A DNA stretch of 64,000 nucleotides from Bdellovibrionales bacterium (GTDB lineage: Bacteria; Bdellovibrionota; Bdellovibrionia; Bdellovibrionales; UBA1609), in contig OZ252021.1 in assembly GCA_965247685.1 (NCBI GenBank), positions 833,271-897,270 on the forward strand, read 5' to 3'. The notes beneath the pieces are model-generated. The model was not told the origin of the DNA, made no database searches, and saw only the letters and a program-made list of their open reading frames with translations. The position numbers and the translations under genes are program-made. This document shows positions 982 through 46,003 of this stretch, in pieces. Each line of letters starts with the position of its first letter. Position 1 is the stretch's first letter.

Positions 982-2316
982 ATGACATTTAAGAAATTAA
1001 AAAACAGTTTTCAGTATGGATACGCAACAATAGTCTCATGTGTTTTTATGGTGATTGTGTTTATACTGCCTTTTCAAGCCTACACACTACAGGATGATTC
1101 TCGAACAACTCTTATGATTGCAGCGATGGAAGGTCGTGTAGAAATTGTAGAGTCCTTGCTAAAAAATGGAAGTGATCCAAAAGCCAAAGATATTAATGGT
1201 AATACGGCTCTGACGTACGCAACGTGGTATGGGAATCTGCAAGTCGCGGACTTCTTAGTGGAAAGAAGTGGAGCTGATGTCAATGCCACAGATAATGATG
1301 GTAGGACGGCTCTGATGCTGGCAGCGTGGTATGGGAATCTGCAAGTCGCGGACTTCTTAGTGGAGAATGAAGCTAATCTCAATGCCACAGCTAAGAATGG
1401 TATGACAGCTCTGATATACGCAATGTGGTATGGGCATCTGCAAGTCGCAGAGTTCTTAGTGGAAAGTGGAGCTGATCTCAATGCCACAACTGAAGATGGT
1501 GTGACGGCTCTGATGTGGGCAGCGTGGTCTGGGACTCTGCAATTCGTGGAATTCTTAGTGGAGAATGAAGCTGATATCAATATCGCAGCTGATGATGATA
1601 GGACGGCTCTGATGATCGCAGCGAGGTTTGAGCATCTGCCAGTTGCGGAGTTCTTAGTGGAAAATGGAGCTGATATAAATGCTCAGAATGAAGATGGTGT
1701 GACGGCTCTGATGTGGGCAGCGAGTTCTGAGAATCTGCCAGTCGCGGAGTTCTTAGTGGAAAGTGGAGCTGACATCAATGTCGCAGCGAAGAATGGTATA
1801 ACAGCTCTGATGATGGCAGCGTGGAATAATGGGAATCTGCCAGTCACGGAATTCTTAGTGGAAAGTGGAGCTGACATCAATGTCGCAGCGAAGAATGGTA
1901 TGACAGCTCTGATGTACGCAGCGTGGAATGAGAATCTGCAAGTCACGGAATTCTTAGTGGAAAATGAAGCTGATATAAATGCCACAGATAATAAGGGTAG
2001 GACGGCTTTGATGATCGCAGCGTGGCATGGGAATCTGCGAGTCGCGGAATTCTTAGTGGAAAGTGGAGCTGATATCAATGTCGCAGCTAATGATGGTAGG
2101 ACGTCTCTGATGATCGCAGTGAAGAAAGGTGATATAGAAACTACGAAGTTCTTGTTGGAAAATGGAGCTGATCGAAAGGTCAAAGATAATGCTGGCAAGA
2201 CGGCTTTTGATTATGCAAAGGGAAGCGGTCATGAGGAACTCGTGCGAGCCTTTCGTCGGACGGGGAAAGAAAAGCCAAAGTCGTTAATACAGAGAATAAA
2301 AGACTCATTCAGTTGA
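982..2316 (+). CDS. Ankyrin-repeat protein with N-terminal hydrophobic anchor/signal, about 12 tandem ANK repeats
   Basis: 444 aa. Hydrophobic N-terminus (IVSCVFMVIVFILPF), then 33-aa units of the form G.TALM.AAW.GNLQVAEFLVESGADLNA. The 99-bp periodicity is visible in the DNA. Confidence 0.9.
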   Translation: MTFKKLKNSFQYGYATIVSCVFMVIVFILPFQAYTLQDDSRTTLMIAAMEGRVEIVESLLKNGSDPKAKDINGNTALTYATWYGNLQVADFLVERSGADVNATDNDGRTALMLAAWYGNLQVADFLVENEANLNATAKNGMTALIYAMWYGHLQVAEFLVESGADLNATTEDGVTALMWAAWSGTLQFVEFLVENEADINIAADDDRTALMIAARFEHLPVAEFLVENGADINAQNEDGVTALMWAASSENLPVAEFLVESGADINVAAKNGITALMMAAWNNGNLPVTEFLVESGADINVAAKNGMTALMYAAWNENLQVTEFLVENEADINATDNKGRTALMIAAWHGNLRVAEFLVESGADINVAANDGRTSLMIAVKKGDIETTKFLLENGADRKVKDNAGKTAFDYAKGSGHEELVRAFRRTGKEKPKSLIQRIKDSFS

Positions 2317-2618
2317 ATTTATCAGACTGAAATTATTTAATCATCGGCTCATCCAATAGTAACTCAACAAAAGATATTTTGGATTTAAAAAAAAACTCTA
2401 GGAGAGTGTAGATATTACATATTTCACGATTTTTGATGGATACTTTTAGTGCATTATGATAGTTTATCTTTTGCATAAATGGAAAGAGTTAAGTCGAACT
2501 GTTTATTTAAAATAGACTTTTTTTTATTTTGCGTCGAGCATGTTTCTAATAGGAGTTAAATAAGATAATACTTAGAAAGTTAAAAGAAAGTTTTATATTT
2601 ATAAACAGGAGTAATGGA

Positions 2619-3609
2619 ATGACATTTAAGAAATTCAAAAACAGTTTTCAACACAGATATACAACAGTCTCATGCGTTTTTATGGTGATTTTGTTTATAC
2701 TGCCTTTTCAAGCCTACACACTACAGGATGATTCTCGAACAACTCTTATGATTGCATCGATGGAAGGTCGTGTAGAAATTGTAGAGTCCTTGCTCAAAAA
2801 TGGAAGTGATCCAAAAGCCAAAGATATTAATGGTAATACAGCTCTGATGCTGGCAGCGAGGTATGGGAAACTGCGGGTCGCGGAGTTGTTATTAGTGGAG
2901 AATGGAGCTGATGTTAATGCCAAAGATAATTATGGTAGGACGGCTCTGATGTACGCAGCGAGGTATGGGAAACTGCGGGTCGCGGAGTTGTTATTAGTGG
3001 AGAATGGAGCTGATGTTAATGCCAAAGATAATTATGGTAGGACGGCTCTGATGTACGCAGCGAGGTATGGGAATTTGCAAGTCGCGGAATTATTAGTGGA
3101 GAATGGAGCTGATATGAATGCCACAGATAATGATGGTCTGACGGCTCTGATGTACGCAGCGTGGGATGAGAATCTGCAAGTCACGGAATTCTTAGTGGAA
3201 AGTTGGAGCTGATATAAATGCCACAGATAATTGGGGTCAGACGGCTCTGATGATCGCAGCGTGGGATGAGAATCTGCAAGTCACGGAATTCTTAGTGGAA
3301 AGTGGAGCTGATCTCAATGCCACAGATAATAAGGGTAGGACGGCTCTGATGCGGGTAGCGAGGTATGGGAATCTGCAAGTCGCGGAGTTCTTAGTGGAAA
3401 GTGGAGCTGATCTCAATGTCGCAGCTGATGATGGTAGTACGGCTCTGATGATGGCAGCGAGGTCTGAGAATCTGCCAGTCACGGAATTCTTAGTGGAAAG
3501 TGGAGCTGATATGAATGCCACAGCTGATGATGGTAGGACGGCTCTGATGTTCGCAAAGGAAGAAGGTCATATAGAAATTGTGAAGTTATTACAAAATCTA
3601 AACAAATAA
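2619..3609 (+). pseudogene. Ankyrin-repeat paralog interrupted by a +1 frameshift
   Basis: ORFs 2619..3212 and 3250..3609 are in different frames but both are ANK repeats. The recurrent 'gtggaaagtggagctga' reads 'gtggaaagTtggagctga' at about 3196-3212. The extra T (3203/3204) creates TGA at 3210-3212. The N-terminus is nearly identical to that of 982..2316. Confidence 0.7.
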
Positions 3610-4181: not shown

Positions 4182-5120
4182 TTATGGTTTATTTGCTTCA
4201 AGTTCTTTGATTCTGTCTTTCATCCTTTGCTTAATACGCTCTCGCACTCTTTTATCGGAGCCTGTAAGTATAGTGGTCGCTGATCCAATGAGTGTCACAG
4301 GTGCCATCAAAAATCCTCCGATTTTCAATAGCTGATCTCTAAAAGGTGTAGCCCATGGGGAAAAGAGTAATCCCACTCCAAAGGCTGCTCCCCCCACCCC
4401 TCCAGCTATTTCCAAATCCTCGTCGTCAGTCATAGCTTTCGCTATCTCGGAGCCAACCTGGTATCCAATATATCCTGTTCCTGTTATGACCAGCACCAAT
4501 GGGCCGAAGGTCGTCGAGGCTTGCAAGAGTGTTACTGTCAAGCCCATTGGACCAAGCGCTCCCACATAGCGACATATTAAGTTTGTCAACCCCGGGGTGT
4601 TTAAACAAGACTTCACATCACCCAGTGCATCTAAGTAGAGATTCAGAACAGGACGCACTGTTTCAAGAGAGGCCTTGATTGTTCCGGCATCTTGACTGGC
4701 ATTTTCAAACTCTGCATGGAAATAAGACTTGATAGTTGAATTTTCTTTATCCACTAAAAGCTCTTTTGTTAGTTTATAAGTAGATATGAGATAATCATGC
4801 ACCCCTGCCATTATCCCCATGCCACAACCTGTGACGTGGTTTGATCTAGGACAACCTTTAATAAATTTCCTTTTCACCCCTTTGCATTCAGGTTTTCTTC
4901 GCATCTTTCTGCAAAGCAAGTTACCAGTATCAGTTGAAAATTCTATCAAGTCTCTTTCTCCTAAGTTGCTACTGAGTGGTGTTTTTTGAGGGCAATTTTG
5001 AGTAGTACAAGGACTTCCAGCTTCTGTATCAGATTCATCAGGATCATAGGAAAAACTAGATCCAGCGCTTAAAAGAAATAAACTTAATAGCACTACCTTT
5101 AAACTATTTTTTGTATTCAT
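4182..5120 (-). CDS. Secreted Cys-containing protein with C-terminal Gly-rich hydrophobic helices (cassette copy A)
   Basis: 312 aa. Signal peptide (VVLLSLFLLSAGSSFS). Gly-zipper-like segments (ITGTGYIGYQVG, AGGVGGAAFGVGLLF) and a basic tail. Paralog of 7123..8109. Confidence 0.6.
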   Translation of the reverse strand: MNTKNSLKVVLLSLFLLSAGSSFSYDPDESDTEAGSPCTTQNCPQKTPLSSNLGERDLIEFSTDTGNLLCRKMRRKPECKGVKRKFIKGCPRSNHVTGCGMGIMAGVHDYLISTYKLTKELLVDKENSTIKSYFHAEFENASQDAGTIKASLETVRPVLNLYLDALGDVKSCLNTPGLTNLICRYVGALGPMGLTVTLLQASTTFGPLVLVITGTGYIGYQVGSEIAKAMTDDEDLEIAGGVGGAAFGVGLLFSPWATPFRDQLLKIGGFLMAPVTLIGSATTILTGSDKRVRERIKQRMKDRIKELEANKP

Positions 5121-5770
5121 TTCTCTTCTCCTTCTTTATCTTTACCTTTATTCTTATCTTTCTGATCTAAAACTGTCATTTGTATTCCTATTTTTTGTGC
5201 TTTTTTGAAAAACCTACTCACACTTCTATTTTGAAGTGCCTCTGTTTTTGGACTAATCACCAATATTTGATAGATGTGATCTGAAAAATAAAGCAGTCTT
5301 TCTTTAAAGAAGACAAGTTGTGTAACATTTCTTTTATAAGAGCCAGTGATATTCAATTCAATAAATTTTTTTCTCTTCTTTAAACTGTGTTGATCGGCTT
5401 TCCAAGTTCCGATATTGAAGAGCATAAGATCTTCTTGTTTTAGTTGAACAAATTTTTCGAAAAAATCATCGGACTGTAATTCTTTCCAATCAACTTTTTT
5501 ATCTTTTTTTTGGAGATAAAGAGTGCCAATAACTTTAGGATTGTCTTTTAATTTGTAAGTTGAAACTCCATCGGCGACACGAACTCCTGACCATTGAGAA
5601 CCCATATCATGGATAGGAAGAGGAGCAGGAGCTAGCTCTAACTCTATTTTTTCTGTTTCTTTAGGAGATTGCTCTTTATTAGAAGTGTTATTTTTTTTTG
5701 AAAAGGCAGTTCCACTAATAAAAAGAGTTAATAAAATAAAAAATTTCATAAGGTAAATTATACGATACAT
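5117..5770 (-). CDS. Secreted hypothetical protein (cassette copy A)
   Basis: 217 aa with a signal peptide. 4-nt overlap with the downstream gene. Differs at 2 residues from 8106..8759. Confidence 0.6.
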   Translation of the reverse strand: MYRIIYLMKFFILLTLFISGTAFSKKNNTSNKEQSPKETEKIELELAPAPLPIHDMGSQWSGVRVADGVSTYKLKDNPKVIGTLYLQKKDKKVDWKELQSDDFFEKFVQLKQEDLMLFNIGTWKADQHSLKKRKKFIELNITGSYKRNVTQLVFFKERLLYFSDHIYQILVISPKTEALQNRSVSRFFKKAQKIGIQMTVLDQKDKNKGKDKEGEEK

Positions 5771-6135
5771 TGACGACAGTTATCAATGAAAGACTATTTA
5801 TTAAGTTGATGTTCCTAGACTTTATTCTACTTAACAAACGATTGATATAGCAATGCCGATCTATGGAAGGGAAATTTTAACAGAGCCATAAATAAAATAG
5901 AAAAATTTGCTGAAGAAAGAGATTGGAGTAAATGGCTTAACTAGTGATATGGACAAATAACTCAAAGCACACAGTTCTAAATTCGTCCAGTTGCCCCCGC
6001 CATTCTCTCGCATCAGTGACACCAACAAATAAATCGAATGGTTTTTTATAGAGATATTCGACACTTCTATTTATGACTTGAGATGAAAATTTATTAATTT
6101 TTTTAATAAATATTCGATATAGAAATGTACTTGAT

Positions 6136-6171
6136 GTTTTGATTGCACCACAATTTCCTATATGATAAAAT
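6136..6171 (+). repeat. Solo CRISPR repeat (35/36 match to array repeat)
   Basis: gttttgattgcacCacaatttcctatatgataaaat, same orientation as the array, with one substitution. It retains the TGaTAAAAT extended -10. Confidence 0.85.
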
Positions 6172-6177
6172 CACCAT

Positions 6178-6250
6178 ATAGAGGCACGCGAGCTGGGTCT
6201 CTATCTTTCATGGGTGCAAGAAGGTAGTGAGTTTTTCACCTTCTTTTTTA
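6178..6250 (+). ncRNA. Candidate small RNA driven by the solo-repeat promoter
   Basis: Starts about 7 nt after the repeat's TAAAAT. Contains an unusually GC-rich stem region (atagag-gcacgcgagctgggt-ctctat). Ends in a hairpin (agaaggt...accttct) plus a T-run at 6219-6249. No plus-strand CDS lies upstream that this terminator could serve. Confidence 0.3.
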
Positions 6251-6272
6251 TTATAAATTATTTAAAAATAAA

Positions 6273-6956
6273 TTATGGAAAGAACAGCGTTTTTATCCAA
6301 TGAGTAAAATTTCCTTTAAAGGTATTCATGGATTCACACGAGTATTCCTTTTGGTAAATGGGTTGATTAGAGTATTTTGAAAAATATTTTTTTACTTCTT
6401 GATCCGTCATAGGTTCTCTTTTTACAGGATACACATGACCAGTTGATTTTTTTCTCTTTTTGGTATCAAAATAAATTTTAGTTCCTTTTCTTGGGTGCTC
6501 TAAATAAGTAGAAGTCTCAGTGAGCTTGTGAGTTTTAAGATCTAAACTGAAAGTCACTAAGCTTGGACAGATAATATGTAAGCGAACGATTTGTTGATAC
6601 TCACCCTTATAAAGTTTATCAAAAGTTTTTGTTCCTTCCTCAGCTAATTTTCCAGTTGGAGCTTTTATACTTGTCAAAACTGTATCTTGGATATAGTTCA
6701 CTTGTGCCAATTGATCTGTGATTTGAATGTTATAGTGTCCACCCGGAGTTTTTGCATCTAAATGATCTTTATAATTCTTTTGTAAAGAACTTATGATTTT
6801 TGGAGGAAAGTCCATGTGATCGACTTGAATACCATTAAAATGTGACACAGAAAAAATAACACCTGTTCCAGTTTCTTTATGCAAGCAACTGTAATGTTTT
6901 TCTGCGCAGGCGTTAAAGCTGAATAAAATAAAAATAAGCAAGCAAAGTTTTTTCAT
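6273..6956 (-). CDS. Secreted hypothetical protein
   Basis: 227 aa with signal peptide (LCLLIFILFSFNACA). Lies between the two cassette copies. Confidence 0.55.
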   Translation of the reverse strand: MKKLCLLIFILFSFNACAEKHYSCLHKETGTGVIFSVSHFNGIQVDHMDFPPKIISSLQKNYKDHLDAKTPGGHYNIQITDQLAQVNYIQDTVLTSIKAPTGKLAEEGTKTFDKLYKGEYQQIVRLHIICPSLVTFSLDLKTHKLTETSTYLEHPRKGTKIYFDTKKRKKSTGHVYPVKREPMTDQEVKKYFSKYSNQPIYQKEYSCESMNTFKGNFTHWIKTLFFP

Positions 6957-7122: not shown

Positions 7123-8109
7123 TTAAGGCTTATTTGCTTCCCATTGCCTAATACGCTCTCGCTTTCTTTCAAGTTTATTTGCTTCATGTTCTTTGATTTT
7201 GTCTATCATCCTTTGCTTAACACGCTCTCGCACTCTTTTATCGGAGCCTGTAAGTAGAACTGTCATTGATCCAATGACTGTCACAGGTGTCGTAAAAATT
7301 CTTCCGAATTTCGAGAGCTTATTTCTAAGAGGTGCACCATATTTGGAAAATATTAATCCCACTCCAAGGGCTGTTCCCGCCACCCCTCCAGCTATTCTCG
7401 AATCCTCGTCGTCAGTCATAAGTTCCGTTATTTCGGAGCCAATCTGGTACCCAATAAATCCTGCTCCTGTTAGGAACATCGTGAATGCGGCGGCCCCTCT
7501 CACGCGAGCCAAGACTGCTGTTGTCATGCCCACTAGAGGAACTCCTATCACATAGTGACATGCCATGTTTACCAACCCAACGTCGTTTAAACAAGAATTC
7601 ACATCACGCAGTGCATCGAAGTAGAGCTGCAGAACAGGACGTACTGCTTCAATAGAGGCCTCGAATGTTCCGGCATCTTGACTGGCATTTTCAAACTCTG
7701 CATGAAAATAAGACTTGATAGTTGAATTTTCTTTATCCACTAAAAACTCTTTTGTTAGTTTATAAGTAGATACGAGATAATCTAACAACCCGTCAAACAT
7801 CCCTAAGCCACAACCTTTGATTCCGTCAAAGACTTCGTCTGAACTACAACCTTTAAGAAATTCCTTTTTCTCCCCTTTGCATTCAGGTCTTTTTTGCATC
7901 TTTTTGCAAAGCAAGTCATCAGTTGAAAATTCTATCAAGTCTCTTTCTCCTAAGTTGCTACTGAGTGGTGTTTTTTGAGGGCAATTTTGAGTAGTACAAG
8001 GACTTCCAGCTTCTGTATCAGATTCATCAGGATCATAGGAAAAACTAGATTCAGCGCTTAAAAGAAATAAACTTAATAGCACTACCTTTAAACTATTTTT
8101 TGTATTCAT
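7123..8109 (-). CDS. Secreted Cys-containing protein with C-terminal Gly-rich hydrophobic helices (cassette copy B)
   Basis: 328 aa. The first ~64 aa match copy A except one residue (G/E in the signal peptide). The central STYKLTKE..ENSTIKSYFHAEFENASQDAGT block is near-identical (one substitution). The membrane half is strongly diverged. The tail carries an extra ERKRERIRQWEANKP unit. Confidence 0.6.
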   Translation of the reverse strand: MNTKNSLKVVLLSLFLLSAESSFSYDPDESDTEAGSPCTTQNCPQKTPLSSNLGERDLIEFSTDDLLCKKMQKRPECKGEKKEFLKGCSSDEVFDGIKGCGLGMFDGLLDYLVSTYKLTKEFLVDKENSTIKSYFHAEFENASQDAGTFEASIEAVRPVLQLYFDALRDVNSCLNDVGLVNMACHYVIGVPLVGMTTAVLARVRGAAAFTMFLTGAGFIGYQIGSEITELMTDDEDSRIAGGVAGTALGVGLIFSKYGAPLRNKLSKFGRIFTTPVTVIGSMTVLLTGSDKRVRERVKQRMIDKIKEHEANKLERKRERIRQWEANKP

Positions 8110-8759
8110 TTCTCTTCTCCTTCTTTATCTTTACCTTTATTCTTATCTTTCTGATCTAAAACTGTCATTTGTATTCCTATTTTTTGTGCTTTTTTGAAAA
8201 ACCTACTCACACTTCTATTTTGAAGTGCCTCTGTTTTTGGACTAATCACCAATATTTGATAGATGTGATTTGAAAAATAAAGCAGTCTTTCTTTAAAGAA
8301 GACAAGTTGTGTAACATTTCTTTTATAAGAGCCAGTGATATTCAATTCAATAAATTTTTTTCTCTTCTTTAAACTGTGTTGATCGGCTTTCCAAGATCCG
8401 ATATTGAAGAGCATAAGATCTTCTTGTTTTAGTTGAACAAATTTTTCAAAAAAATCATCGGACTGTAATTCTTTCCAATCAACTTTTTTATCTTTTTTTT
8501 GGAGATAAAGAGTGCCAATAACTTTAGGATTGTCTTTTAATTTGTAAGTTGAAACTCCATCGGCGACACGAACTCCTGACCATTGAGAACCCATATCATG
8601 GATAGGAAGAGGAGCAGGAGCTAGCTCTAACTCTATTTTTTCTGTTTCTTTAGGAGATTGCTCTTTATTAGAAGTGTTATTTTTTTTTGAAAAGGCAGTC
8701 CCACTAATAAAAAGAGTTAATAAAATAAAAAATTTCATAAGGTAAATTATACGATACAT
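8106..8759 (-). CDS. Secreted hypothetical protein (cassette copy B)
   Basis: 217 aa, near-identical to 5117..5770. 4-nt overlap with 7123..8109. Confidence 0.6.
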   Translation of the reverse strand: MYRIIYLMKFFILLTLFISGTAFSKKNNTSNKEQSPKETEKIELELAPAPLPIHDMGSQWSGVRVADGVSTYKLKDNPKVIGTLYLQKKDKKVDWKELQSDDFFEKFVQLKQEDLMLFNIGSWKADQHSLKKRKKFIELNITGSYKRNVTQLVFFKERLLYFSNHIYQILVISPKTEALQNRSVSRFFKKAQKIGIQMTVLDQKDKNKGKDKEGEEK

Positions 8760-8897
8760 TGACGACAGTTATCAATGAAAGACTATTTATTAAGTTGATG
8801 TTCCTAGACCTTATCACCTCTAATACATCTTAATGTTTGTTTTATTTGTATAAATAATACTACAATTGATGATAAAGTATCTGGGGAATCAAATCAT

Positions 8898-9398: not shown

Positions 9399-9432
9399 AT
9401 GCACTAATATAATGAGTGTTCTATTGTACTAA

Positions 9433-9537
9433 GATTTCAATTCTTCTTGAGAGACAAAATGCTAATCTTATGAATAAAACTGTTAGTAACAGGCAATACG
9501 ATAGAATTCAAAAAATTGACTGTAACTATATAGATCC
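9433..9537 (+). other. Second copy of the CRISPR leader
   Basis: About 105 nt aligning to 12549-12651, nearly identical from 'atgaataaaactgttagtaacaggcaatacgatagaattcaaaaaattgactgtaactata' onward. It directly abuts a repeat. Confidence 0.7.
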
Positions 9538-9573
9538 GTTTTGATTGCACTACAATTTCCTATATGATAAAAT
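9538..9573 (+). repeat. Solo CRISPR repeat (36/36) attached to the leader copy
   Basis: Perfect gttttgattgcactacaatttcctatatgataaaat with no second repeat after it. Confidence 0.9.
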
Positions 9574-9628: not shown

Positions 9629-9982
9629 TTACTTCTCACATTGAAACTCATAATTATGAGTTGGGTTGTAGCCCATAATCCATAAAAAAGGAATCCAAAA
9701 AAATAGTCCGCCAATTAAAGCTCCAACACTTAACCGTTCAGTTCGACTGAACATTACAGATTGGCTTTGACAGCCTGCTTTTCTCAAATTAACAGATGTT
9801 GTAGAACCCACTACTTTAGTATCAGAGTGCAAAACCTCACCTGTACCTTGATATTGACCATCGACATACACTTTGACGTTGCGGTCAATATTGCCATTCC
9901 TATCTACTACACGAATAGATGTGGTGCTAGCACAAGATATTAAAGAGCTTGCTACACAAATAGAAATGATACGAAAAAACAT
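9629..9982 (-). CDS. Putative lipoprotein (PEGA-like beta domain plus C-terminal hydrophobic segment)
   Basis: 117 aa. Lipobox SLISC, a VKVYVDGQYQGTGEV motif, and a C-terminal GALIGGLFFWIPFLWIMG segment. Confidence 0.5.
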   Translation of the reverse strand: MFFRIISICVASSLISCASTTSIRVVDRNGNIDRNVKVYVDGQYQGTGEVLHSDTKVVGSTTSVNLRKAGCQSQSVMFSRTERLSVGALIGGLFFWIPFLWIMGYNPTHNYEFQCEK

Positions 9983-10259: not shown

Positions 10260-11108
10260 TTAAAAGTTTATCTTTTTAACAATATCTTTTGTTGTTTGAA
10301 CATAGTATGAAAAATTTTGATTAAGACCTTTTACTGTAGATTGTACTTCTTGCCATCCTATTTCCTGTGATGTCAGAAAATCATCACTATTCAAACAAGA
10401 ATCAATCAATGAAAGAGGTACATTTTTTGCTTCAAATACCTTTACGATATGTTTGGACAGCTCTTTAAAAAAATCATTAATTTTTCCTTCATCAAGAACT
10501 TTTGTATAAATTTGTTCTATATCATAAAAGTCACGAGCCCTATTGTTATGTGTGCTTCGATACTTATAATCAGGATGAGATTGACATATAGCTCGAAGTT
10601 TTTCCAGAATAAGTAAAGCCTTGGAATAAACTTTTATTTCAATGGACTTTACTCTAATTATTTCGAAACTTTCACTGTATTCCATTTCACTGATATCAAT
10701 TGGAATTTTATTTGTTAACAAACCTTCCGGAATAATAGCGGAGGCGGATTTTTGATAGACTTTGTTGTTCTTTAGTTATGAGTTTAAATTCAATAGCCCA
10801 TCCACTCAAGGAGTCAGAACTCCAGTCTGTCTTATTATAGGTTTACGAATTGGTTTGAAATCGATAACATATAGTTTATTTTTTAAAAATTCTTTACGTA
10901 TTGCTGATTCAAGATAATTAAAAAAATTATTTTCTTTCTCAATTTTTTCAGGAAAAGAAAAATCAGAATCTCTGGATAATCGAGATTTTAAATTATGTAC
11001 AAATCTTAGAGCTTGTCCTCCTTTTAAATACATCTTTCCACTTAAGATATCATGTGAATAAATGGCTACAAGAATTTTCCAAACAACCTCTTCAGCGGTT
11101 ATCATCAA
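10260..11108 (-). pseudogene. AbiEii/AbiGii-family nucleotidyltransferase toxin gene with two in-frame stops
   Basis: ORFs 10806..11108 and 10260..10721 are in the same frame. They are separated by TGA (10806-10808) and TAA (10776-10778). The N-terminal part has the KGGQALRF..RLSRDSDFSF NTase-like motif. The restored length of about 280 codons fits the family. Confidence 0.6.
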
Positions 11109-11961
11109 TCACTCCTTTGGGATAATGAATTTTCCATTTTGAATCATAAGACCAATTTTTATTAAAATTTTTATCTAAATAAAATGTTATTTTAGGAGAA
11201 GAAAAATAATTTAACCATTTTTTGCTGATATGAGGTTCCTTTAATCTGGAAAGTAGGAAACCTATAGACTGCCAGTAAGGATAAAAAGGGGAATAAGCTT
11301 CATAAACTTTATAGAGTTTGTTAATGTTTATGCGAGCTTTAGCAAAAGCATTTATAAGAGTTTTAATTCCACCACTATAATGGGGGCTGATTAGAGAATC
11401 GATAAGTGTTCTTTCCAGTGATGTAAAAAATATTTTAACTTGTCTTGTTTTATCTATTTTCAGTAATTTATTTTTAACTCCTATTTTACCTAAGTCTTGT
11501 TTTTCTAATAATGTAATTTTAGTTTTTTGATACATAAAGTATTTAGATGTTTTTCTTGGGGATTTAAGGAAGGCTTGATGTATTTTTGCTGAAATCTTTT
11601 CCTTTGAATGAGTAGGAATTCTTCCAACAATCTCTTTGGATAAAAAATATTCTTCTGGCCTATGATTTGTTAATTCATTTAAGTATAAAGCTGAAAAATG
11701 ACTAAGGTAATATCTTGGATGAAAAGCTGTTAATATATCAATAATTTGGATCTTATTTAAATTAAAAGTTAAGAGCTTATAATCTGCTGTTGCATTCCAA
11801 ACTACAGGGACTTCTGTTACAGCTCTTAGAATACGTGTTTTTTCTTGATCTGTAATACGTTTGTTTTTATGCATTTTTTGAAGTAGTTTTTCCAATGTTA
11901 TCTCAGGAAAAACCATAGGTAATTTTGAAGAAAGTTCTGTTTTAAATTTTGCAATGGACAT
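11092..11961 (-). CDS. AbiEi-family antitoxin / transcriptional regulator
   Basis: 289 aa. Overlaps the downstream toxin gene by 17 nt. LSHFSALYLNELT and TSLERTLIDSL..P.YSGG motifs resemble AbiEi proteins. Confidence 0.6.
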   Translation of the reverse strand: MSIAKFKTELSSKLPMVFPEITLEKLLQKMHKNKRITDQEKTRILRAVTEVPVVWNATADYKLLTFNLNKIQIIDILTAFHPRYYLSHFSALYLNELTNHRPEEYFLSKEIVGRIPTHSKEKISAKIHQAFLKSPRKTSKYFMYQKTKITLLEKQDLGKIGVKNKLLKIDKTRQVKIFFTSLERTLIDSLISPHYSGGIKTLINAFAKARININKLYKVYEAYSPFYPYWQSIGFLLSRLKEPHISKKWLNYFSSPKITFYLDKNFNKNWSYDSKWKIHYPKGVIDDNR

Positions 11962-12326: not shown

Positions 12327-12548
12327 GCTGTTTTAGTCACTACATCATCTTTAGCTATTCTGTTTGCCGTACTTAGCAGTGAGTTTAAGTTTAGAAAAAT
12401 AAAAAAGCATCTTGGAATAAACAAAAAGAAGTGAAGACAGGTTTTAGTGAAGTTAATTAAAGATTTTCTATCAGGATATGGAAGGGAGATTTTAACAGAG
12501 GCCATAAATAAAATAGAAAAATTTACTGGAGAAAGAGATTGGAGTAAG

Positions 12549-12651: not shown

Positions 12652-14270
12652 GTTTTGATTGCACTACAATTTCCTATATGATAAAATAAAGATATCAGCT
12701 CATCAAAAAAGCGGGTAGTTTTGATTGCACTACAATTTCCTATATGATAAAATGGTAAAACAATTTATAAGTATGCAAATGGTGTTTTGATTGCACTACA
12801 ATTTCCTATATGATAAAATGGGCTTGTTAAGCACTATTAATAGGTATATGTTTTGATTGCACTACAATTTCCTATATGATAAAATAGGTTGCGTTGAAAG
12901 TCTGTTTTGAAGGGCGTTTTGATTGCACTACAATTTCCTATATGATAAAATTGTTATATTATAGTTAAGTAAATAAATCTAGTTTTGATTGCACTACAAT
13001 TTCCTATATGATAAAATATAAATCTTGAACAATTCACTAAGATAATAGTTTTGATTGCACTACAATTTCCTATATGATAAAATTCTTCTTTTGTACTTTC
13101 TATTTTTGTAAGTGTTTTGATTGCACTACAATTTCCTATATGATAAAATTTAAAAGAAATAAACAAGGAGCTGGAAGTGGTTTTGATTGCACTACAATTT
13201 CCTATATGATAAAATTATTCGGTCATATTGTGTAAAGAGATCATGGTTTTGATTGCACTACAATTTCCTATATGATAAAATAAAGAATATGATGAATGAG
13301 GTGGCCAGAAGGTTTTGATTGCACTACAATTTCCTATATGATAAAATATATTATAGTTAAATAAACAATTGTCTAGGGTTTTGATTGCACTACAATTTCC
13401 TATATGATAAAATTGGTTTACAATTGGTGTAAAAACCAGCTGGGTTTTGATTGCACTACAATTTCCTATATGATAAAATATCTATAGATCAATTAAATAA
13501 AAAAGTCTAGTTTTGATTGCACTACAATTTCCTATATGATAAAATTGAAAAGCCGTGGTTGTCCGATAAGACTAGGTTTTGATTGCACTACAATTTCCTA
13601 TATGATAAAATATTACAAGTTGATTCACAAGCTCGGACGATGTTTTGATTGCACTACAATTTCCTATATGATAAAATATTTATAGAAGATTACAATAATA
13701 AATATGCGTTTTGATTGCACTACAATTTCCTATATGATAAAATACCACTAGAATAAATATGGATTGGAACTCCGTTTTGATTGCACTACAATTTCCTATA
13801 TGATAAAATTCATTGTACTGGATGGAATGAATATAATGTGTTTTGATTGCACTACAATTTCCTATATGATAAAATTCCTCGGTTAAGGACCTCGCCTCGA
13901 TTTATGTTTTGATTGCACTACAATTTCCTATATGATAAAATAGTTACAGAAATTGTGGGTTTCACAACTCCGTTTTGATTGCACTACAATTTCCTATATG
14001 ATAAAATGGGTCTTCGTTCCACACACCACCTGCGTTGGTTTTGATTGCACTACAATTTCCTATATGATAAAATAAATGTAAAATTTGAGAATGGATGTGC
14101 TTAGTTTTGATTGCACTACAATTTCCTATATGATAAAATTGAAGTGGCCGGAACTATTAATATTGCTACGTTTTGATTGCACTACAATTTCCTATATGAT
14201 AAAATTTATAAATATGCAAACGGTAGGAAGCCTTGTTTTGATTGCACTACAATTTCCTATATGATAAAAT
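12652..14270 (+). CRISPR. CRISPR array: 25 x 36-bp repeats, 24 spacers (23 x 30 nt, last one 29 nt)
   Basis: The repeat gttttgattgcactacaatttcctatatgataaaat recurs every 66 bp (12652, 12718 ... 14170, 14235). All 25 copies look identical. The plus-strand crRNA sense is inferred from tracrRNA complementarity. Confidence 0.97.
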
Positions 14271-14312
14271 AAGCCATTTATAACTCCTTGAAATTACAGG
14301 AGTTATTGGCTT
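14271..14312. terminator. Hairpin between array end and cas2 stop
   Basis: aagcca-ttt-ataactcct...aggagttat-tggctt imperfect inverted repeat. It is T-rich on the minus-strand side, downstream of cas2. Confidence 0.45.
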
Positions 14313-14321
14313 ATTAAAAAC

Positions 14322-14654
14322 TCAAAATAGTAGCAACTGTTGTTTCTTCTTAGTTAATTTTTCATCATACTTTCCACGAAAACTCACAATATTACTAAAC
14401 TGCTTATCCGTCACAGCTAATAGATCAATTTTCCCATTTTGAGGCAGTTGGTAAGAAATTTTTTTAATGAGACTTTCCACCTTTTCTTTACTAGGGCATA
14501 CCTTAGAATAAACAGAATATTGAACCATCTGAAAACCAAGATCCAATAAACGATACCTAAATTTAGATGCCATTTTTCTCTCTTTTTTTGTTGTTACCGG
14601 TAAATCAAAAAAAGTAAATAACCACATAACTCTATAATGACCTAAATAACTCAT
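14322..14654 (-). CDS. cas2: CRISPR-associated endoribonuclease Cas2
   Basis: 110 aa. VMWLFTFFDLPVTTKKERK..FRYRLLDLGFQMVQYSVY is typical of type II Cas2. ATGA overlap with the cas1 stop. Confidence 0.92.
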   Translation of the reverse strand: MSYLGHYRVMWLFTFFDLPVTTKKERKMASKFRYRLLDLGFQMVQYSVYSKVCPSKEKVESLIKKISYQLPQNGKIDLLAVTDKQFSNIVSFRGKYDEKLTKKKQQLLLF

Positions 14655-15601
14655 GCCGAAGTTTTTATTTTCTTAGAATATAAAAAACTTAAATTAAAAT
14701 TTTGCCAATTTATCTTTAGATTAATATCCCATTTTTTCTTTTCCTTACACAATACTAACGCCAAGGCGGTGGACATTCGAGAAATAACTTGAAACAGTGG
14801 ACTTATTCCAGAGCATCCTTCAACATCCACAATCACAAGACCTGACAGTACCTGCTTCACTTCCTTATTCACATCACGATATGCTTGTGAGTATAACTGT
14901 CTTACAACATAATCTGCGATAGGTCTAAAAGGCTCTATTAAGTCATCTACCAAACACATAGGATTATACATATTTCTATGATGAATACCTATACTAGGAT
15001 GAAGCCCTGACACAATAACACCTCTTGCAACACAAGACCGTATAATAGCATAAGCATAATTTAACATCGCATTAATGCCATCTCCATTTTGATCTCTTTT
15101 AAATTTGTTGGAAAATAATCTCATCCAATAGACCCTAGCACCTTGAGCTTCTAAATTATTCAAATCTCCAGGTTGAACTAAATTGGACATATTGAATAAT
15201 TTTTTATAAGGCAAACCTAACTCCTTCAATACTAAAGATTGATTTTTTAACTTTAACTTTACCACTTCTTTCCACAATCTTTTTTGTAAAGATTGACTCA
15301 TATTAACCTGAGATTGAATCCTTATATTTTGTTTACAATTTCCAACTAACGGCAAAAGAATAGCTCTTGGTGAAAAATTGGATCCACATATAGAAACTGG
15401 AATCCCACGATCTGATAATTCCACTAAAATATTAGAAGAATAAATACAACCATAACCTGTAATAACAATACCTAAAATATCATCAAGAGAAACACGAGAT
15501 AATAAATTCTGTTTTTCTTTGATCTCTAAAAACCCTCTATATAAACTTAGACGAATATTAGGTCTCGAGATTTCAATAAACTGTCCAAAACTACTACTCA
15601 C
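14651..15601 (-). CDS. cas1: CRISPR-associated integrase Cas1
   Basis: 316 aa. LNYAYAIIRSCVARGVIVSGLHPSIGIHHRN and DLIEPFRP motifs. Positioned between cas9 and cas2. Confidence 0.93.
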   Translation of the reverse strand: MSSSFGQFIEISRPNIRLSLYRGFLEIKEKQNLLSRVSLDDILGIVITGYGCIYSSNILVELSDRGIPVSICGSNFSPRAILLPLVGNCKQNIRIQSQVNMSQSLQKRLWKEVVKLKLKNQSLVLKELGLPYKKLFNMSNLVQPGDLNNLEAQGARVYWMRLFSNKFKRDQNGDGINAMLNYAYAIIRSCVARGVIVSGLHPSIGIHHRNMYNPMCLVDDLIEPFRPIADYVVRQLYSQAYRDVNKEVKQVLSGLVIVDVEGCSGISPLFQVISRMSTALALVLCKEKKKWDINLKINWQNFNLSFLYSKKIKTSA

Positions 15602-15610
15602 AAACTCAAC

Positions 15611-18600
15611 CTAAGCACTATGTCTTTTAGATTCTTCTTTACCAACAATAAAATCAGTCAATTGAACCAAACCACAAGGGCTAATATTAACTCGTTTAGG
15701 ATTACATTTTTGTAGAGAAGATGGACTCTTTTGTGTGTACTTATATTGATCTGATCTACTTCTGTTTCTTGCATCTACATTCGCTTCAAAATGCTCTGAA
15801 AATGTTAGATTTTTATTTTGTGTAAATTTAACAAGCCTCCAGAATCGACCAGCAAAAAATAACATATCCCCTTTCATCAATCTTGCTTTGTCTGGAATAG
15901 GCTTAAAAGTCTTTTGATTAGCAGAAAATATACTTATAACTTGTGCATCCCATTTTCCGCTTGAGTTTTTAAACAGTTGAATTGCATAATTTCCATCCTC
16001 CTGAAAAAATTTGTAAATTTTTCCAAATTTATTTTCAATAGGTATCACTCGTTCCTTTCTATTTAAGCGAACCCTGCGAATACCTGTTTTTTGGTGATAA
16101 TTAATTAAAAATTCTTTAGAGAGGGTATTATTGACTTTTAATTCTTTTAAAAAATCTTGTTTCACCTTTTCACTAATGATTCGACTTTCTATTTTCTTTT
16201 TATCTGCTCCGTTTAAAGTCAAAATTTCAACATAATGGATCACATTAATTGGCTTGGAAAAAGTATTAACACTACCTAATACCCCGTAAGCTGTATCATT
16301 GTGGAGTTGACCTGCTTTTTTAGTTCTCCTTCTGTGAGATACAATAATTTGATCTATTACTCTCTTAGCATCTTCTTTAAAAGAAGGCCAAGGAATCACA
16401 TCTTGTGTTATCACTCTACCAATATTCTCCAGCCTCTCTTTACTCTTTCCTTCTATTCCCTTCGCAATATTACTAATCTGTTGAACTAAAGAACGATCAA
16501 CTAAACCTATCACAAGAGCATCTTTTGCATGATGTCTATGATCGTTCCTATTTTTTTTATCATACTGTAACAAAGATCTTAAAAGAAATGTAGTCTGTCC
16601 TTTAACACTCCACACATCTTTACAAACTCTTCCTAAATACTGAATAGCATATTTAGATATATAACGAGTATCATTCAACTGCCTTTCTAAAAAGTTTCCA
16701 TTTTCTTCAAATTTCTTCATAGCATCCTTGTTAAATTTCCATCGTTTTTGCTCAGATAACTCATTAACTCTCTGAAGAATTCCTGCCCATCGCACTTTAT
16801 CAGATGAAAAGGCTTCATAAGGAGTTTGGTTCCCTTTTTGTTGATTAAAAACTTTATAAACCAACACTTTATTCATAAAGCCGTCATCTAAAGTCTTAGA
16901 GTAGGGCAATATGTGATCAACTTCCAGCTCTGGACTAAGAAGTTTAGTTTCTGGAATCTTTTTACCAGAGTAAACACAGGTATTGTTTTGCTCTTTCCAA
17001 AGCTTATATCTGACACGATTCGTTTTATTGTTAATTCCTCCAAACTCATCAATAAATTTTTTCGCATCTTCATTTCTTTTTTTATTATCATTTATTTTCT
17101 TATCTGATTTTTTTTTAGTTTCTGAGCCCATTGGTAAATCTCTAGCTGTCTCTATCACCACCTCCATCGGTTTTCCATAGACACGAAGGATATCATTTAC
17201 CAATAGCCTTAATTGATTAAAAGCAATATGGACTGTAGGATTTGGAATTCTGAAGGACTCAAATTTATTATGTTTACTCTCTGCTGTTTCAGACAATTTC
17301 ATCTCCACACAATGGTCTCCTAAAACTTGCTGATAAAGAGGTAGCTTGTCTAACAACTCACCTTTATGTCTCCTATCTGAATGATGCCAGCCTGCTAACT
17401 TAATAGCTTCAATTTCCAATTCTCCCTTTTCAAGAAAAGGTATAATTTTGTGAATAACTTTTCTACTGTATTTCCCATGATCTTGTGGAAGATCGTTCAT
17501 GTTTTCCAAAACGTTATCCAAAATTTGATCAGAAATATTTAAATTATTTTCTCTACTAAACTTTTGTAAATCTTTTAAGACTTCCTCATCCTTTTTTATA
17601 AAGATATCTTCTTGGCTTTCACCCTCCAATAACTCGATAAATTGATCCTGAATATCTAAAGACCAACTTTGCCAATCAGGTATAAGGTTTGTCAAAACTA
17701 TACTAGTTTGCTCTCCCTCTAAATAATTCCTATCGTTAATATCTAAGTTAAAACGAGAAAAGTCTTCTACATCAGAGAAAAAATTTTTAAATTCTTTTTC
17801 TAAAGAAGAAAATGTAACTTTATTTTTCTTTTGAAATAGCTTTTCAATAACATAATTTCTAAACTCAATACCTTTATCCATATCCTTCAATAACACACTT
17901 TCACCCATCATATTTATATAAGATAAATTATTTAATTCTTTTAAAATCCTAAATTTTTGAAAAGAAGGCAATGCTCTACTAATTCGTTTCTCACTAGGGA
18001 GAAAATAACATTTTCCGACAATAGACTTCTTTAATTGCCTTTGATGAAAAATAGCCTTATGAAATAAAGCTTTCAACTTTTGATCTTTCAACTTATCGTA
18101 ATATTGAGACTGAGAGTCCCAGAGTTTATTAAATTCATTTTCAATCATAGACCTTTGAGCATAAACAACATAATTCTCCTTAGCTCCAGCACCTATTGGC
18201 TTTCTAGCTAATATCCAGTGTTCTTGTTGAGATCCTGGGTGTTTTCTACTTTCTTCCATCTTTTGAAAACGTTTCCATAAAAATTCACCATATGTTCTAG
18301 CTCCACATTTTTCTAGTTGCTCTTCTGAATTTTCTACAGATTTAGCAATAATCCCATCCTCTTTTCCACTTCCTGATTTCCTATTACTTTTAAAACCTCT
18401 TCTTTGATTTAAGTGAAATAAAGCTCTTCCAAAATGATAAATATTCAACTTTTCATCCAGCCCCTTGGTTCTTATTTCATATGGGTTTAAATTTTGTAAC
18501 TCTTTTAAAGAACATTGATCCTCCGGGAATAATCCATATTTTTTCAACAAATGAAGAAGATAAGCTCTTCTCTGTAAATAACGATCTCTTTGTCTTCTTT

Positions 18601-18838
18601 GCAGCCTTGCCTGCCTGCGAGTGGCATTTAAAGTTGTATAATCTTTGGAATTTCTACCAGAGGGAAAAATCCTCACCCCTGCTTCTGTAATCTCTTTAGG
18701 ACTGTTGTTTTTATCTAAATTATATAAAGCCCACCCTATAGAATTAGTTCCTATGTCTAAAGCAAGTCTTAAGTTATTTGGGGGTTGTTTTAAATCTTGA
18801 TTTAGATCTTTCAGTTTTAAAATTTTATCACCTGACAT
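15611..18838 (-). CDS. cas9: Cas9 (type II-C-sized, 1075 aa)
   Basis: RuvC-I LALDIGTNSIGWAL. Arg-rich bridge helix RRQARLQRRQRDRYLQRR. RuvC-II VVIETARDL. HNH EVDHILPYS...NKVLV...N. RuvC-III HHAKDALVIG. All catalytic residues are present. Confidence 0.95.
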   Translation of the reverse strand: MSGDKILKLKDLNQDLKQPPNNLRLALDIGTNSIGWALYNLDKNNSPKEITEAGVRIFPSGRNSKDYTTLNATRRQARLQRRQRDRYLQRRAYLLHLLKKYGLFPEDQCSLKELQNLNPYEIRTKGLDEKLNIYHFGRALFHLNQRRGFKSNRKSGSGKEDGIIAKSVENSEEQLEKCGARTYGEFLWKRFQKMEESRKHPGSQQEHWILARKPIGAGAKENYVVYAQRSMIENEFNKLWDSQSQYYDKLKDQKLKALFHKAIFHQRQLKKSIVGKCYFLPSEKRISRALPSFQKFRILKELNNLSYINMMGESVLLKDMDKGIEFRNYVIEKLFQKKNKVTFSSLEKEFKNFFSDVEDFSRFNLDINDRNYLEGEQTSIVLTNLIPDWQSWSLDIQDQFIELLEGESQEDIFIKKDEEVLKDLQKFSRENNLNISDQILDNVLENMNDLPQDHGKYSRKVIHKIIPFLEKGELEIEAIKLAGWHHSDRRHKGELLDKLPLYQQVLGDHCVEMKLSETAESKHNKFESFRIPNPTVHIAFNQLRLLVNDILRVYGKPMEVVIETARDLPMGSETKKKSDKKINDNKKRNEDAKKFIDEFGGINNKTNRVRYKLWKEQNNTCVYSGKKIPETKLLSPELEVDHILPYSKTLDDGFMNKVLVYKVFNQQKGNQTPYEAFSSDKVRWAGILQRVNELSEQKRWKFNKDAMKKFEENGNFLERQLNDTRYISKYAIQYLGRVCKDVWSVKGQTTFLLRSLLQYDKKNRNDHRHHAKDALVIGLVDRSLVQQISNIAKGIEGKSKERLENIGRVITQDVIPWPSFKEDAKRVIDQIIVSHRRRTKKAGQLHNDTAYGVLGSVNTFSKPINVIHYVEILTLNGADKKKIESRIISEKVKQDFLKELKVNNTLSKEFLINYHQKTGIRRVRLNRKERVIPIENKFGKIYKFFQEDGNYAIQLFKNSSGKWDAQVISIFSANQKTFKPIPDKARLMKGDMLFFAGRFWRLVKFTQNKNLTFSEHFEANVDARNRSRSDQYKYTQKSPSSLQKCNPKRVNISPCGLVQLTDFIVGKEESKRHSA

Positions 18839-19044
18839 AAAAAAAACTCCTTTATAAATATACAGTCACTTTGAAAGTAGTTTCGGATAAAATATTAAAA
18901 ACATTAGGAATAATTTTACTTTTTTAATAAAAAAATAAAATCTATTTCATAATGAAACATAAAAATAGAGTATGAAAAAAAATTATACAGTAAATAATCA
19001 AAAAAACATTTGATCATATTGATAAACTATGTTCTAATGATCAA

Positions 19045-19130
19045 CAATCATATAGGAAATTGTGGTACTCTCAATAACAAGCGAGTATTCGCACCAGTCT
19101 TAGGCGAAGGAAACTTCGCCTTTGTTTTTT
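19045..19130 (+). ncRNA. tracrRNA: tracrRNA
   Basis: Anti-repeat atcatataggaaattgtggtac (19047-19068) is complementary to repeat nt 10-31, with one G:U and one A:C. The tcaa at 19072-19075 can pair again with repeat nt 4-7 after an internal loop. Small hairpin gcga-gtat-tcgc. Terminator ggcgaagg-aaa-cttcgcc plus T-run (19103-19130). Promoter-like TTGATC-N17-TCTAAT at 19010-19038. Confidence 0.8.
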
Positions 19131-19346
19131 CTATATTAAAAAATAAATCTTTTAATATCTGCATAAAAAGCCCCTTTCCAAAAGATAGGTAATAAGAAGA
19201 AGACTGTACACCTTTTGCACATTCATATTTTTGAGATGGCTGATAATTCAATTGGTCTCTTCCAAGATAAACAGATTTTTTAATAAAAAACTGAATATTT
19301 GTATATACTTTAGAATTTTTCTATAAGATCAAATAAGACTTTTATG

Positions 19347-19382
19347 GTTTTGATTGTACTACAATTTCCCGTAGGTAAAACT
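19347..19382 (+). repeat. Degenerate solo CRISPR repeat next to the tracrRNA
   Basis: gttttgattgTactacaatttccCGtaGgTAaaaCt. The first 23 nt match the repeat except C11T; the 3' third has decayed and the embedded -10 is lost. Confidence 0.7.
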
Positions 19383-38134: not shown

Positions 38135-39646
<1,512 letters not shown>

Positions 39647-44973: not shown

Positions 44974-45786
44974 TTAAAGCGAGAAAATAGGATTTTGTAA
45001 ACTGTATTTTTCTAACATATTCTTCATTTTTTGTTTTCCCCATTCTTTTTCTTTCTGTTTAAGTTGATTGGGTGTGACTTTTGAAAAACCTTGGAGATCT
45101 TTTCTCATCTTGTCTTTGACTGCATTTTTTCCGATAAGGTCTTCTATAAATTGAACTATTTTTTTTAGTTCACTGAGATTGATTCTTGAAAAAGCTTGGA
45201 GATTTTTCTTCATTATTTCTCTGGTAGCCTCTTTTTCGATGTAGTTTTCTATAAATTGAACTACTTTTTTTAGTTCGCTGAGATTGGCTCTTGAAAAACC
45301 TTGGAGATCTTTTTCTATCCTTTCTCTGGTAGCCTCTTCTCCAATGTAGTCTTTTATAAATTGAATATTATCTTTTATATTCTTCACTGAGTTTTTATGA
45401 AAACCGCTCAAGGATTTTTTTAAACGTTCGTTCACCCCCTCTTTTTCTATATAATTCTCATAGAGCTTGACTCTTTCCAAAAAATTCTTAAATCGAAAGA
45501 GTTTAAAATAAGAGACTGCTCGGATTCTTTTTAAAGTTTCCTCTTCTCCGATTCGATTGATTAAAAAATTGAGGAATTCTTTCATTTCAGGTTCATCCCA
45601 AGACTTTGTAGTTTCTGTTACCTTAGTTTTCCAATTTTTAGGCATCTCAGAATTGAAGTTTTTTCCTATTTGATTTTTTGCAAACTGAATAAAGACATGC
45701 TCACATTTACCTTGAGCAAAAGAGTTAAGAGCAAAAAGTAAAGTAAATATATGTATGCGAAAAGAATGCATATTTTTAACTCCCAT
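44974..45786 (-). CDS. 35-aa-repeat secreted protein, short paralog (2 canonical repeats plus degenerate flanking units)
   Basis: 270 aa. The N-terminal about 95 aa and the C-terminal LKQKEKEWGKQKMK tail are shared with 46004..48496. FIENYIxKEATREIMKKNLQAFSxxNLSELKK units. Confidence 0.7.
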   Translation of the reverse strand: MGVKNMHSFRIHIFTLLFALNSFAQGKCEHVFIQFAKNQIGKNFNSEMPKNWKTKVTETTKSWDEPEMKEFLNFLINRIGEEETLKRIRAVSYFKLFRFKNFLERVKLYENYIEKEGVNERLKKSLSGFHKNSVKNIKDNIQFIKDYIGEEATRERIEKDLQGFSRANLSELKKVVQFIENYIEKEATREIMKKNLQAFSRINLSELKKIVQFIEDLIGKNAVKDKMRKDLQGFSKVTPNQLKQKEKEWGKQKMKNMLEKYSLQNPIFSL

Positions 45787-46003
45787 TAATGAAGGGCCAT
45801 TTGAAGGAAGTTAGAACATTTTAGCGTATTAAAGTCTACATATTTTTTCATTGTAAATCATATATGTGGTTTAAGTTTTTTGTAATTCTTAATAAGAGGC
45901 TATTTATTGCCTGAGAACAGGTCACTGTCAGGCTATACTTCTTTTCTGCCGCAAAGAAGATTTTTATAAATTTTACAAAAGTAGTTGGATTTTAATCTTG
46001 TTT

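Follow-up and report, generated by a model that had tools for sequence, protein, structure and literature searches.

A stray type II-C CRISPR repeat abuts a probable remnant of an rRNA operon in a Bdellovibrionales bacterium

In type II-C CRISPR systems, each repeat bears its own promoter, spacers are inserted at the last repeat with the first being the 'extra' one, and terminators insulate the arrays against unwanted transcription (Feussner et al. 2025, PMC12080349). Repeats also occur outside arrays: repeat-like sequences were reported in 76% of II-C loci (anti-repeats of the trans-activating CRISPR RNA, tracrRNA, are counted) and mini-arrays in 6%, and the standalone repeat units of type II systems, most of them judged to have no function, come mostly from spurious repeat duplication (Shmakov et al. 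2023, PMC10120712). Here we describe a solo type II-C repeat in 64,000 nucleotides (nt) of DNA from a Bdellovibrionales bacterium (GenBank assembly GCA_965247685.1, contig OZ252021.1, positions 833,271 to 897,270 of the forward strand), hereafter called the window. The repeat is an authentic stray copy of the window's type II-C repeat, its promoter probably still works, and the GC-rich segment that it would transcribe is most likely what is left of the 3′ end of a 23S–5S ribosomal RNA (rRNA) operon. An earlier note on this DNA had proposed a domesticated repeat that drives a regulatory small RNA (sRNA); the promoter part of that proposal is plausible, but the domestication and the dedicated structured RNA are not supported.

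The solo repeat, the DNA that follows it and the adjacent gene comprise the following features:

6136–6171, plus strand: solo type II-C CRISPR repeat, matching the array repeat at 35 of 36 positions
6173–6198, plus strand: block 1, most likely 23S-derived (domain V, sense)
6178–6183 and 6199–6204, plus strand: 6-bp stem atagag/ctctat enclosing a 15-nt GC-rich loop, gcacgcgagctgggt
6199–6222, plus strand: block 2, most likely 23S-derived
6219–6253, plus strand: weak hairpin (AGAAGGT at 6219–6225, ACCTTCT at 6238–6244) with T6 (6244–6249), then ATTA
6228–6253, plus strand: block 3, most likely the remnant of a post-5S terminator
6273–6956, minus strand: gene for a 227-amino-acid (aa) protein with a signal-peptide-like N-terminus, convergent with the solo repeat

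The lone repeat was borne out by alignment to the 36-nt repeat of the main array (plus strand, GTTTTGATTGCACTACAATTTCCTATATGATAAAAT), which lies 6.5 kb away; no such match was expected from shuffles, and the single mismatch, T>C at 6149, falls outside both hexamers of the embedded promoter. That promoter comprises a −35-like TTGCAC (6143–6148), a 17-bp spacer and the extended −10 element TGATAAAAT (TG-n-TAAAAT, 6163–6171). As TGATAAAAT is the 3′ end of every repeat, the solo one included, the TGaTAAAAT element pointed out previously is intact. Comparison with five related type II-C loci from Bdellovibrionales (L001 and L006–L009, with Cas9 proteins 56–63% identical) revealed repeats whose middles differ, with TTGCAx and a TGnTAnAAT ending kept in all five. 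Because its built-in promoter is complete, the stray repeat probably fires, at about 6178, since transcription in such arrays is expected to begin about 7 nt beyond each repeat, and a short (~70-nt) chimeric plus-strand transcript ending at T6 is probably made. Open reading frames (ORFs) of at least 40 aa are absent from the plus strand within 5864–6252, in agreement with the reported lack of a plus-strand coding sequence.

In its wider setting the window resembles the repeat-promoter arrays of Neisseria meningitidis and Campylobacter jejuni (summarised in PMC12080349), with which it shares the cas9–cas1–cas2 set, an array directed towards cas2, 36-nt repeats that end in an extended −10 element and a tracrRNA beside cas9. 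Unlike the repeats of those arrays, the one at 6136–6171 would transcribe non-CRISPR DNA, and because no spacer–repeat unit comes after it, the product would not be a CRISPR RNA (crRNA).

The roughly 80 nt 3′ of the solo repeat consist of three collinear, same-strand blocks that resemble the 3′ end of a 23S–5S operon, as seen in L005 (a genome with an orthologue of the 227-aa gene and a 23S–5S operon, used for the rRNA comparison) and in L007. Block 1 reads CCA--TATAGAGGCACGCGAGCTGGGT against 23S CCAATTAAAGAGGTACGCGAGCTGGGT. A short-word search (blastn-short) of 6172–6272 gave 18 of 19 identical positions for this block, with an E value of 0.01 against 137 kb of loci and three matches (two in L007, one in L005), whose positions are called by the Rfam large subunit (LSU) rRNA models as two full 23S genes (L005 and L007) and one 23S fragment (L007). 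None of 500 dinucleotide shuffles, compared with both strands of a 23S gene, reached its score (z = 7.6). Block 2, CTCTATCTTTCATGGGTGCAAGAA against 23S CCCTATCTTCCGTGGGCGCAGGAA, is 19/24 identical, and its score was reached by 0 of 5,000 shuffles within the next 100 nt of 23S. Its counterpart in the intact gene sits 25 nt beyond block 1, and the relic therefore carries an internal deletion. Block 3, TGAGTTTTTCACCTTCTTTTTTATTA, agrees at 22 of 26 positions with TGATTTTTTCATCGCCTTTTTTATTA, which in L005 forms the 3′ half of the post-5S terminator; a single shuffle in 5,000 did as well within the remaining 612 nt of the rrn 3′ flank. Chained against the L005 operon, the alignment scored 76, compared with 49.8 ± 4.2 for shuffles (0/300).

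The matches are lineage-specific, with AAAGAGG, TATCTTCCG and GCAGGAA agreeing with the 23S of L005 and L007. Of the six substitutions, all but one are C>T or G>A, as expected from neutral decay in an AT-rich genome. By interpolation, the 23S part corresponds to approximately positions 2590–2660 of the Rfam LSU model, which we take to be the stretch of domain V with GGUACGCGAGCUGGGUU, in the A-loop region. We conclude that the segment most likely descends from the 3′ end of a 23S–5S operon, terminator included, and has since decayed and suffered an internal deletion.

Such an origin would account for each of the traits that had made the segment look like an RNA gene. The atagag/ctctat stem arises because the 25-nt deletion puts AGAG (from AAAGAGG) beside CTCT (from CCCTAT), and the segment is GC-rich because it is rRNA-derived. 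The striking GC-rich stem-loop described earlier is thus present, but it does not fold beyond expectation: the 73-nt candidate reaches −17.2 kcal/mol against −15.8 ± 2.8 kcal/mol for shuffles (z = −0.49), 54 of 200 of which fold at least as well. The hairpin with T6 is, as claimed, oriented for the plus strand only, its minus-strand side being followed by TGCACCC. The terminator was also said to have no other obvious client; the missing client would be the old rRNA operon. With an 8-bp stem, a 12-nt loop and −7.6 kcal/mol before U6, this hairpin was missed by a consensus terminator scan (on the loop criterion), whereas the terminators of the tracrRNA, the array end and rrn operons range from −13.5 to −19.8 kcal/mol (L005 rrn, −19.8; L007 rrn, −17.9). 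By its sequence it is likely a weakened version of the intrinsic terminator of the rrn operon.

The gene that converges on the solo repeat has an rrn neighbourhood of its own in a relative. Among 5.8 billion proteins, the 227-aa protein has only one orthologue group, at 57% identity (L005), and the L005 orthologue lies ~2 kb from the 3′ end of the 23S–5S operon, likewise in convergent orientation. No CRISPR repeat or sRNA counterpart was found beside the L005 gene, and the other window genes from 69–26351 had no homologue in the loci compared. A paralogue of the 227-aa protein that is 93% identical (P0003) is encoded elsewhere in the same genome, outside the window, and would fit a segmental duplication of the rrn flank. 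Within the window, the 16S rRNA gene (38135–39646) stands alone, followed by protein genes and a tRNA; as neither 23S nor 5S is present there, the rRNA operon of this organism is split.

At 19790–20279 of L007, positions 2473–2632 of the 23S model are fused to the 3′ half of 5S, followed by the terminator and a 90-nt flank; a degenerate solo CRISPR repeat closes this segment, in the place that the tracrRNA takes at the real locus. It is a young, independent partial duplicate of that genome's own rrn 3′ end. The segment at 6173–6253 likewise resembles the pseudo-fragments left by rrn rearrangements in being a short, decayed and internally deleted sense piece of 23S followed by the operon terminator, and in adjoining a gene that neighbours the rrn 3′ end in a relative. 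It differs from the usual fragments in that a CRISPR repeat is fused to its 5′ edge and provides it with a new promoter. To our knowledge, and in the literature searched, no junction between an rRNA fragment and a promoter-bearing CRISPR repeat has been described.

The main array, the DNA upstream of the solo repeat and a second stray copy are as follows:

12652–14270, plus strand: main CRISPR array of 25 repeats, transcribed towards cas2 and opposite to the cas genes
5862–5931, plus strand: copy (67/71 identity, 94%, with one 1-nt gap) of the module found at 12477–12547, upstream of the main array
5932–6135, no strand assigned: 204 nt that separate this module from the solo repeat, where the main array has an upstream region of 104 nt instead
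9423–9573, plus strand: second solo repeat (9538–9573, 36/36) with a copy of the array upstream region

The module had been reported as lying about 200 nt upstream of the repeat; the copy is real, but the coordinates given for it were 2 nt off. It is a non-coding fragment, frameshifted relative to the main copy. A reading of the module as the N-terminus of a MazG-type pyrophosphohydrolase (KIEKFxxERDW) was a guess that we dropped, as the 41-aa peptide of the main copy has no Pfam match. The stretch at 5932–6135 has no second copy in the window or in L001 and L005–L009, is not rRNA-like and has no Rfam match. At 9423–9573, the upstream part is 98% identical to the 104-nt region before the main array, and the promoter of its repeat would read antisense into a convergent 117-aa gene (9629–9982), with no terminator between them.

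Taken together, the region is likely a rearrangement scar and not a purpose-built RNA gene, with any RNA from it most likely a by-product, or genomic debris. The first-transcribed end of the array (the upstream module and the first, 'extra' repeat) would have been copied ectopically at least twice, to 5862–6171 and to 9423–9573; alternatively, an array may have collapsed to a single repeat beside the relic. The copy at 5862–6171 would stop exactly at the repeat boundary, abutting an older, decaying remnant of a 23S–5S operon 3′ end that would consist of a piece of 23S domain V with the 25-nt deletion (6173–6222), a gap marking the loss of 5S, the spacer and the remainder of 23S, and the terminator (6219–6253). 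Every repeat of the system carries a full sigma-70-type promoter (TTGCAC, 17 bp, TG-n-TAAAAT), the stray one would therefore fire at ~6178, and the chimeric ~70-nt RNA would halt, at least in part, at the relic terminator before entering the 227-aa gene in antisense. The activity of the promoter, the absence of an RNA function and the order of events are all things we infer.

Several observations weigh against this reading. The LSU covariance model gave no match in 5800–6400 at E ≤ 10, so that the rRNA assignment rests on short pairwise blocks; a fragment of about 50 nt with a 25-nt deletion is likely below that model's reach. Block 1 alone had an E value of ~0.7 when the rrn operon was searched with BLAST against the whole window, and the rRNA comparison was made with the operons of relatives (L005 and L007), not that of the source genome itself. 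Conservation was weighed against five related loci (Cas9 56–63% identical), the collections containing no closer relative. The repeat is also better preserved than its neighbour, with 1 of 36 positions different compared with 6 substitutions in 43 plus two deletions in the relic. If both were equally old and neutral, we estimate P ~0.015 for at most one mismatch in 36, so the repeat is younger, has been homogenised with the array or is under selection. Finally, T6 and the 8-bp stem persist, and their survival could reflect selection for termination.

Stray repeats turned out to be common in these loci. The window contains three (6136–6171, 9538–9573 and 19347–19382), and four of the five related loci contain others (L006 at 16722; L007 at 17984 and 20244; L008 at 5906; L009 at 9111). 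Their sites are non-orthologous, which fits spurious repeat duplication, and the DNA downstream of them shares nothing with 6172–6252. Like the standalone repeat units described by Shmakov et al. (2023, PMC10120712), the element at 6136–6171 is a single repeat-like sequence outside the array and near a cas locus, and it is probably a product of the tendency of repeats to recombine. It has no second degenerate repeat and so is not a mini-array, it shows no partial match to a cas promoter, and the stray repeats of the five related loci lie at other positions; unlike most standalone units it carries its own promoter. It is a further example of a spurious standalone type II repeat, the curious feature being its fusion to an rRNA relic.

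The degenerate repeat at 19347–19382 has seven mismatches and a damaged −10 box; it shares the strand of the tracrRNA and lies ~210 nt downstream of it. A near-perfect solo repeat occupies the equivalent place beyond the tracrRNA in L009 (9111–9146), and that of L008 (5906–5941) lies further out; the position is possibly recurrent. The variant GCACCACAA is common to the solo repeats at 6136–6171 of the window (where it involves 6149), at 5906–5941 of L008 and at 20244–20279 of L007, while the resident arrays carry CACTACAA or CATCACAA. Since the CCACAA form is the one to which the anti-repeats of the tracrRNAs are complementary, the solo repeats may keep an ancestral state of the repeat.

The rest of the CRISPR–Cas locus comprises:

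14271–14316, plus strand: strong array-end hairpin terminator directly after the last repeat, −17.2 kcal/mol
14322–14654, minus strand: cas2 (Pfam Cas2)
14651–15601, minus strand: cas1 (Pfam Cas1)
15611–18838, minus strand: cas9 (HNH_4, Cas9_a and RuvC_III domains; homologues named Cas9)
~19040–19131, plus strand: tracrRNA, with an anti-repeat (~19047–19078) complementary to the repeat and then a terminator

The gene set is that of type II-C, namely cas9, cas1 and cas2 only, without csn2 or cas4, and no additional cas ORF was found between 14322 and 18838. The closest relatives of the Cas9, at 55–66% identity, come from Bdellovibrionales metagenome-assembled genomes in the collections searched. 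The tracrRNA folds far beyond shuffles (z = −4.4), and its region has a homologous counterpart in L006–L008. In all six arrays (the window, L001 and L006–L009), a strong hairpin terminator faces cas2 within ~15 nt of the last repeat, an arrangement that makes sense only if the repeats fire on that strand. The loop region of this hairpin is conserved (CCTTGAAATTACAGG-like) between 14271–14316 and the same place in L001 and L006–L009; since II-C systems also acquire their spacers at this end, the hairpin may serve as an acquisition leader too.

These array-end terminators suggest one alternative, in which the RNA is junk but the hairpin with T6 has been selected as an insulator against antisense transcription into the 227-aa gene. 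All six arrays end in a hairpin that shields cas2, insulation of II-C arrays by terminators has been shown (Feussner et al. 2025, PMC12080349), and T6 and the 8-bp stem have persisted in an otherwise decayed relic. Yet the hairpin is much weaker than the real terminators, and the repeat at 9538 faces its own convergent gene (9629–9982) with no terminator, so insulation is no general requirement. We regard selection for insulation as improbable.

Gene fragments can give rise to new sRNAs. The solo repeat could have been domesticated as the promoter of a functional, trans-acting ~70-nt sRNA (6178–6250) with the GC-rich stem-loop as its functional module and a terminator of its own. The intact, conserved promoter and near-perfect repeat, which is better kept than the adjacent relic, would suit this, as would the plus-strand-only hairpin and T6 ~75 nt downstream in a region with no plus-strand coding sequence. 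The body of the RNA, however, is accounted for by descent from an rRNA operon and AT-biased decay, its fold is unexceptional by the shuffle comparison above, and the terminator is weak. The earlier note had called for an Rfam scan and a search for homologues. No family reached its gathering score in the window, and none of relevance appeared in 5800–6400 at E ≤ 10, where the matches were at chance level (STnc390, at E = 0.62, was driven by the terminator). Neither the sRNA core GAGGCACGCGAGCTGGGTCTCT nor a degenerate pattern of the repeat had any match in the metagenomes scanned, and homologues were likewise absent from the five related cas9 loci and from the flank of the orthologous gene. Moreover, the perfect solo repeat at 9538 has no terminator-bounded unit downstream, and the stray repeats elsewhere are followed by unrelated DNA. 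A dedicated sRNA is therefore quite unlikely.

Among the viral sequences scanned, the 19-mer GGCACGCGAGCTGGGTCTC matched a single sequence (64–67% GC), present in three copies. We rejected this as a protospacer and judged it a chance match in GC-rich DNA, as only the 19-mer agrees and the flanks differ.

A variant that starts from the rRNA origin itself is that the repeat promoter was exapted to express constitutively a ~70-nt mimic of the A-loop/peptidyl-transferase region that is functional in its own right and might, say, act as decoy for a toxin directed at rRNA, a modification enzyme or a ribosome-assembly factor. Selection would then explain the near-perfect repeat and the surviving U-tract, but we give this reading very little credence.

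Scarcely more than a formal alternative is a relic mini-array in which 6172–6201 (30 nt) is a genuine spacer that was acquired from the cell's own or from foreign 23S rDNA, while the next repeat has degenerated past recognition. The 23S similarity does begin 1–2 nt from the repeat boundary, block 1 (6173–6198) fits within one 30-nt spacer length, and the main-array spacers are also GC-richer than the genome. Past 6198, however, 23S sequence resumes in collinear order after a skip of 25 nt (0/5,000 shuffles), and the rrn terminator comes next. No repeat-like match (at most 11 mismatches) occurs downstream or within 3 kb of 6136–6171, and a functional spacer that targets 23S would be self-lethal.

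An action of the solo repeat, read from upstream, through Cas9 and tracrRNA, either as an 'extraneous' crRNA-like regulatory guide (like scaRNA or tracr-L) or as a tracrRNA/Cas9 sponge (like phage RNA anti-CRISPRs), is equally far-fetched. In its favour, pairing with the anti-repeat of the tracrRNA is better for the C at 6149 than for the T of the array, and regulatory standalone repeats are documented in other CRISPR types (PMC10120712, PMC10651486). Against it, there is no convincing upstream promoter, stray repeats sit elsewhere in the related loci, PHROG gave nothing for the eight neighbouring proteins (with Pfam finding only broken AbiEii fragments ~4 kb away), and one chance 10-mer aside, the 10–14-nt repeat-proximal seeds of all four repeats considered (solo or first) occur only once in the window. 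The scaRNA of Francisella (type II-B) and tracr-L of Streptococcus pyogenes (type II-A) are also repeat-related RNAs made near cas9 and outside the array, but they act by repeat/anti-repeat pairing and a partial guide, whereas the RNA considered here would begin past the repeat and include none of it. RNA anti-CRISPRs (Racr; PMC10651486) are solitary repeats on phages or mobile elements, a setting that the eight neighbouring proteins do not share.

The preferred reading, a stray repeat fused to an rRNA relic, has consequences beyond this locus. Type II-C repeats are portable promoters, and those that recombination sends astray can activate neighbouring DNA and yield RNAs that look designed. 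The case is cautionary in that the GC-rich, terminator-bounded appearance here derives from a dead rRNA operon. The CRISPR loci of Bdellovibrionales shed solo repeats often, which in principle provides raw material for the evolution of regulatory RNAs. Were the transcript functional after all, it would involve the first CRISPR repeat known to us to be recruited purely as a promoter, and be the first rRNA-fragment RNA so driven.

The surroundings of the solo repeat show other signs of rearrangement, with 3.9–12.6 kb pieced together from duplicated stretches and disrupted genes; for example, 3891–3972 matches 12379–12460. A two-gene cassette (312/328 aa and 217 aa, with no Pfam or PHROG matches) is present twice, at 4182–5820 and 7123–8810; the copies are 100% identical over 4929–5228 and 83–87% identical elsewhere, a pattern that suggests patchy gene conversion. 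Between the repeat at 9538 and the array, 10260–11961 is probably a decayed toxin–antitoxin module: it includes an AbiEii toxin gene, now in two separate ORFs of 153 aa and 100 aa, that adjoins a 289-aa ORF with no Pfam match, and an intact AbiEii gene occupies a similar position in L006. In the main array, two pairs of spacers are alike (12754–12783 and 14206–14234; 12952–12981 and 13348–13377; for example, tttataagtatgcaaatggt and ttataaatatgcaaacggt), which suggests that related targets were sampled repeatedly. Further out, at 1163–3555 and 45075–48087, the window carries ankyrin-repeat genes with 99-nt tandem units and an 830-aa minus-strand ORF made of ~19 copies of a 105-nt unit.

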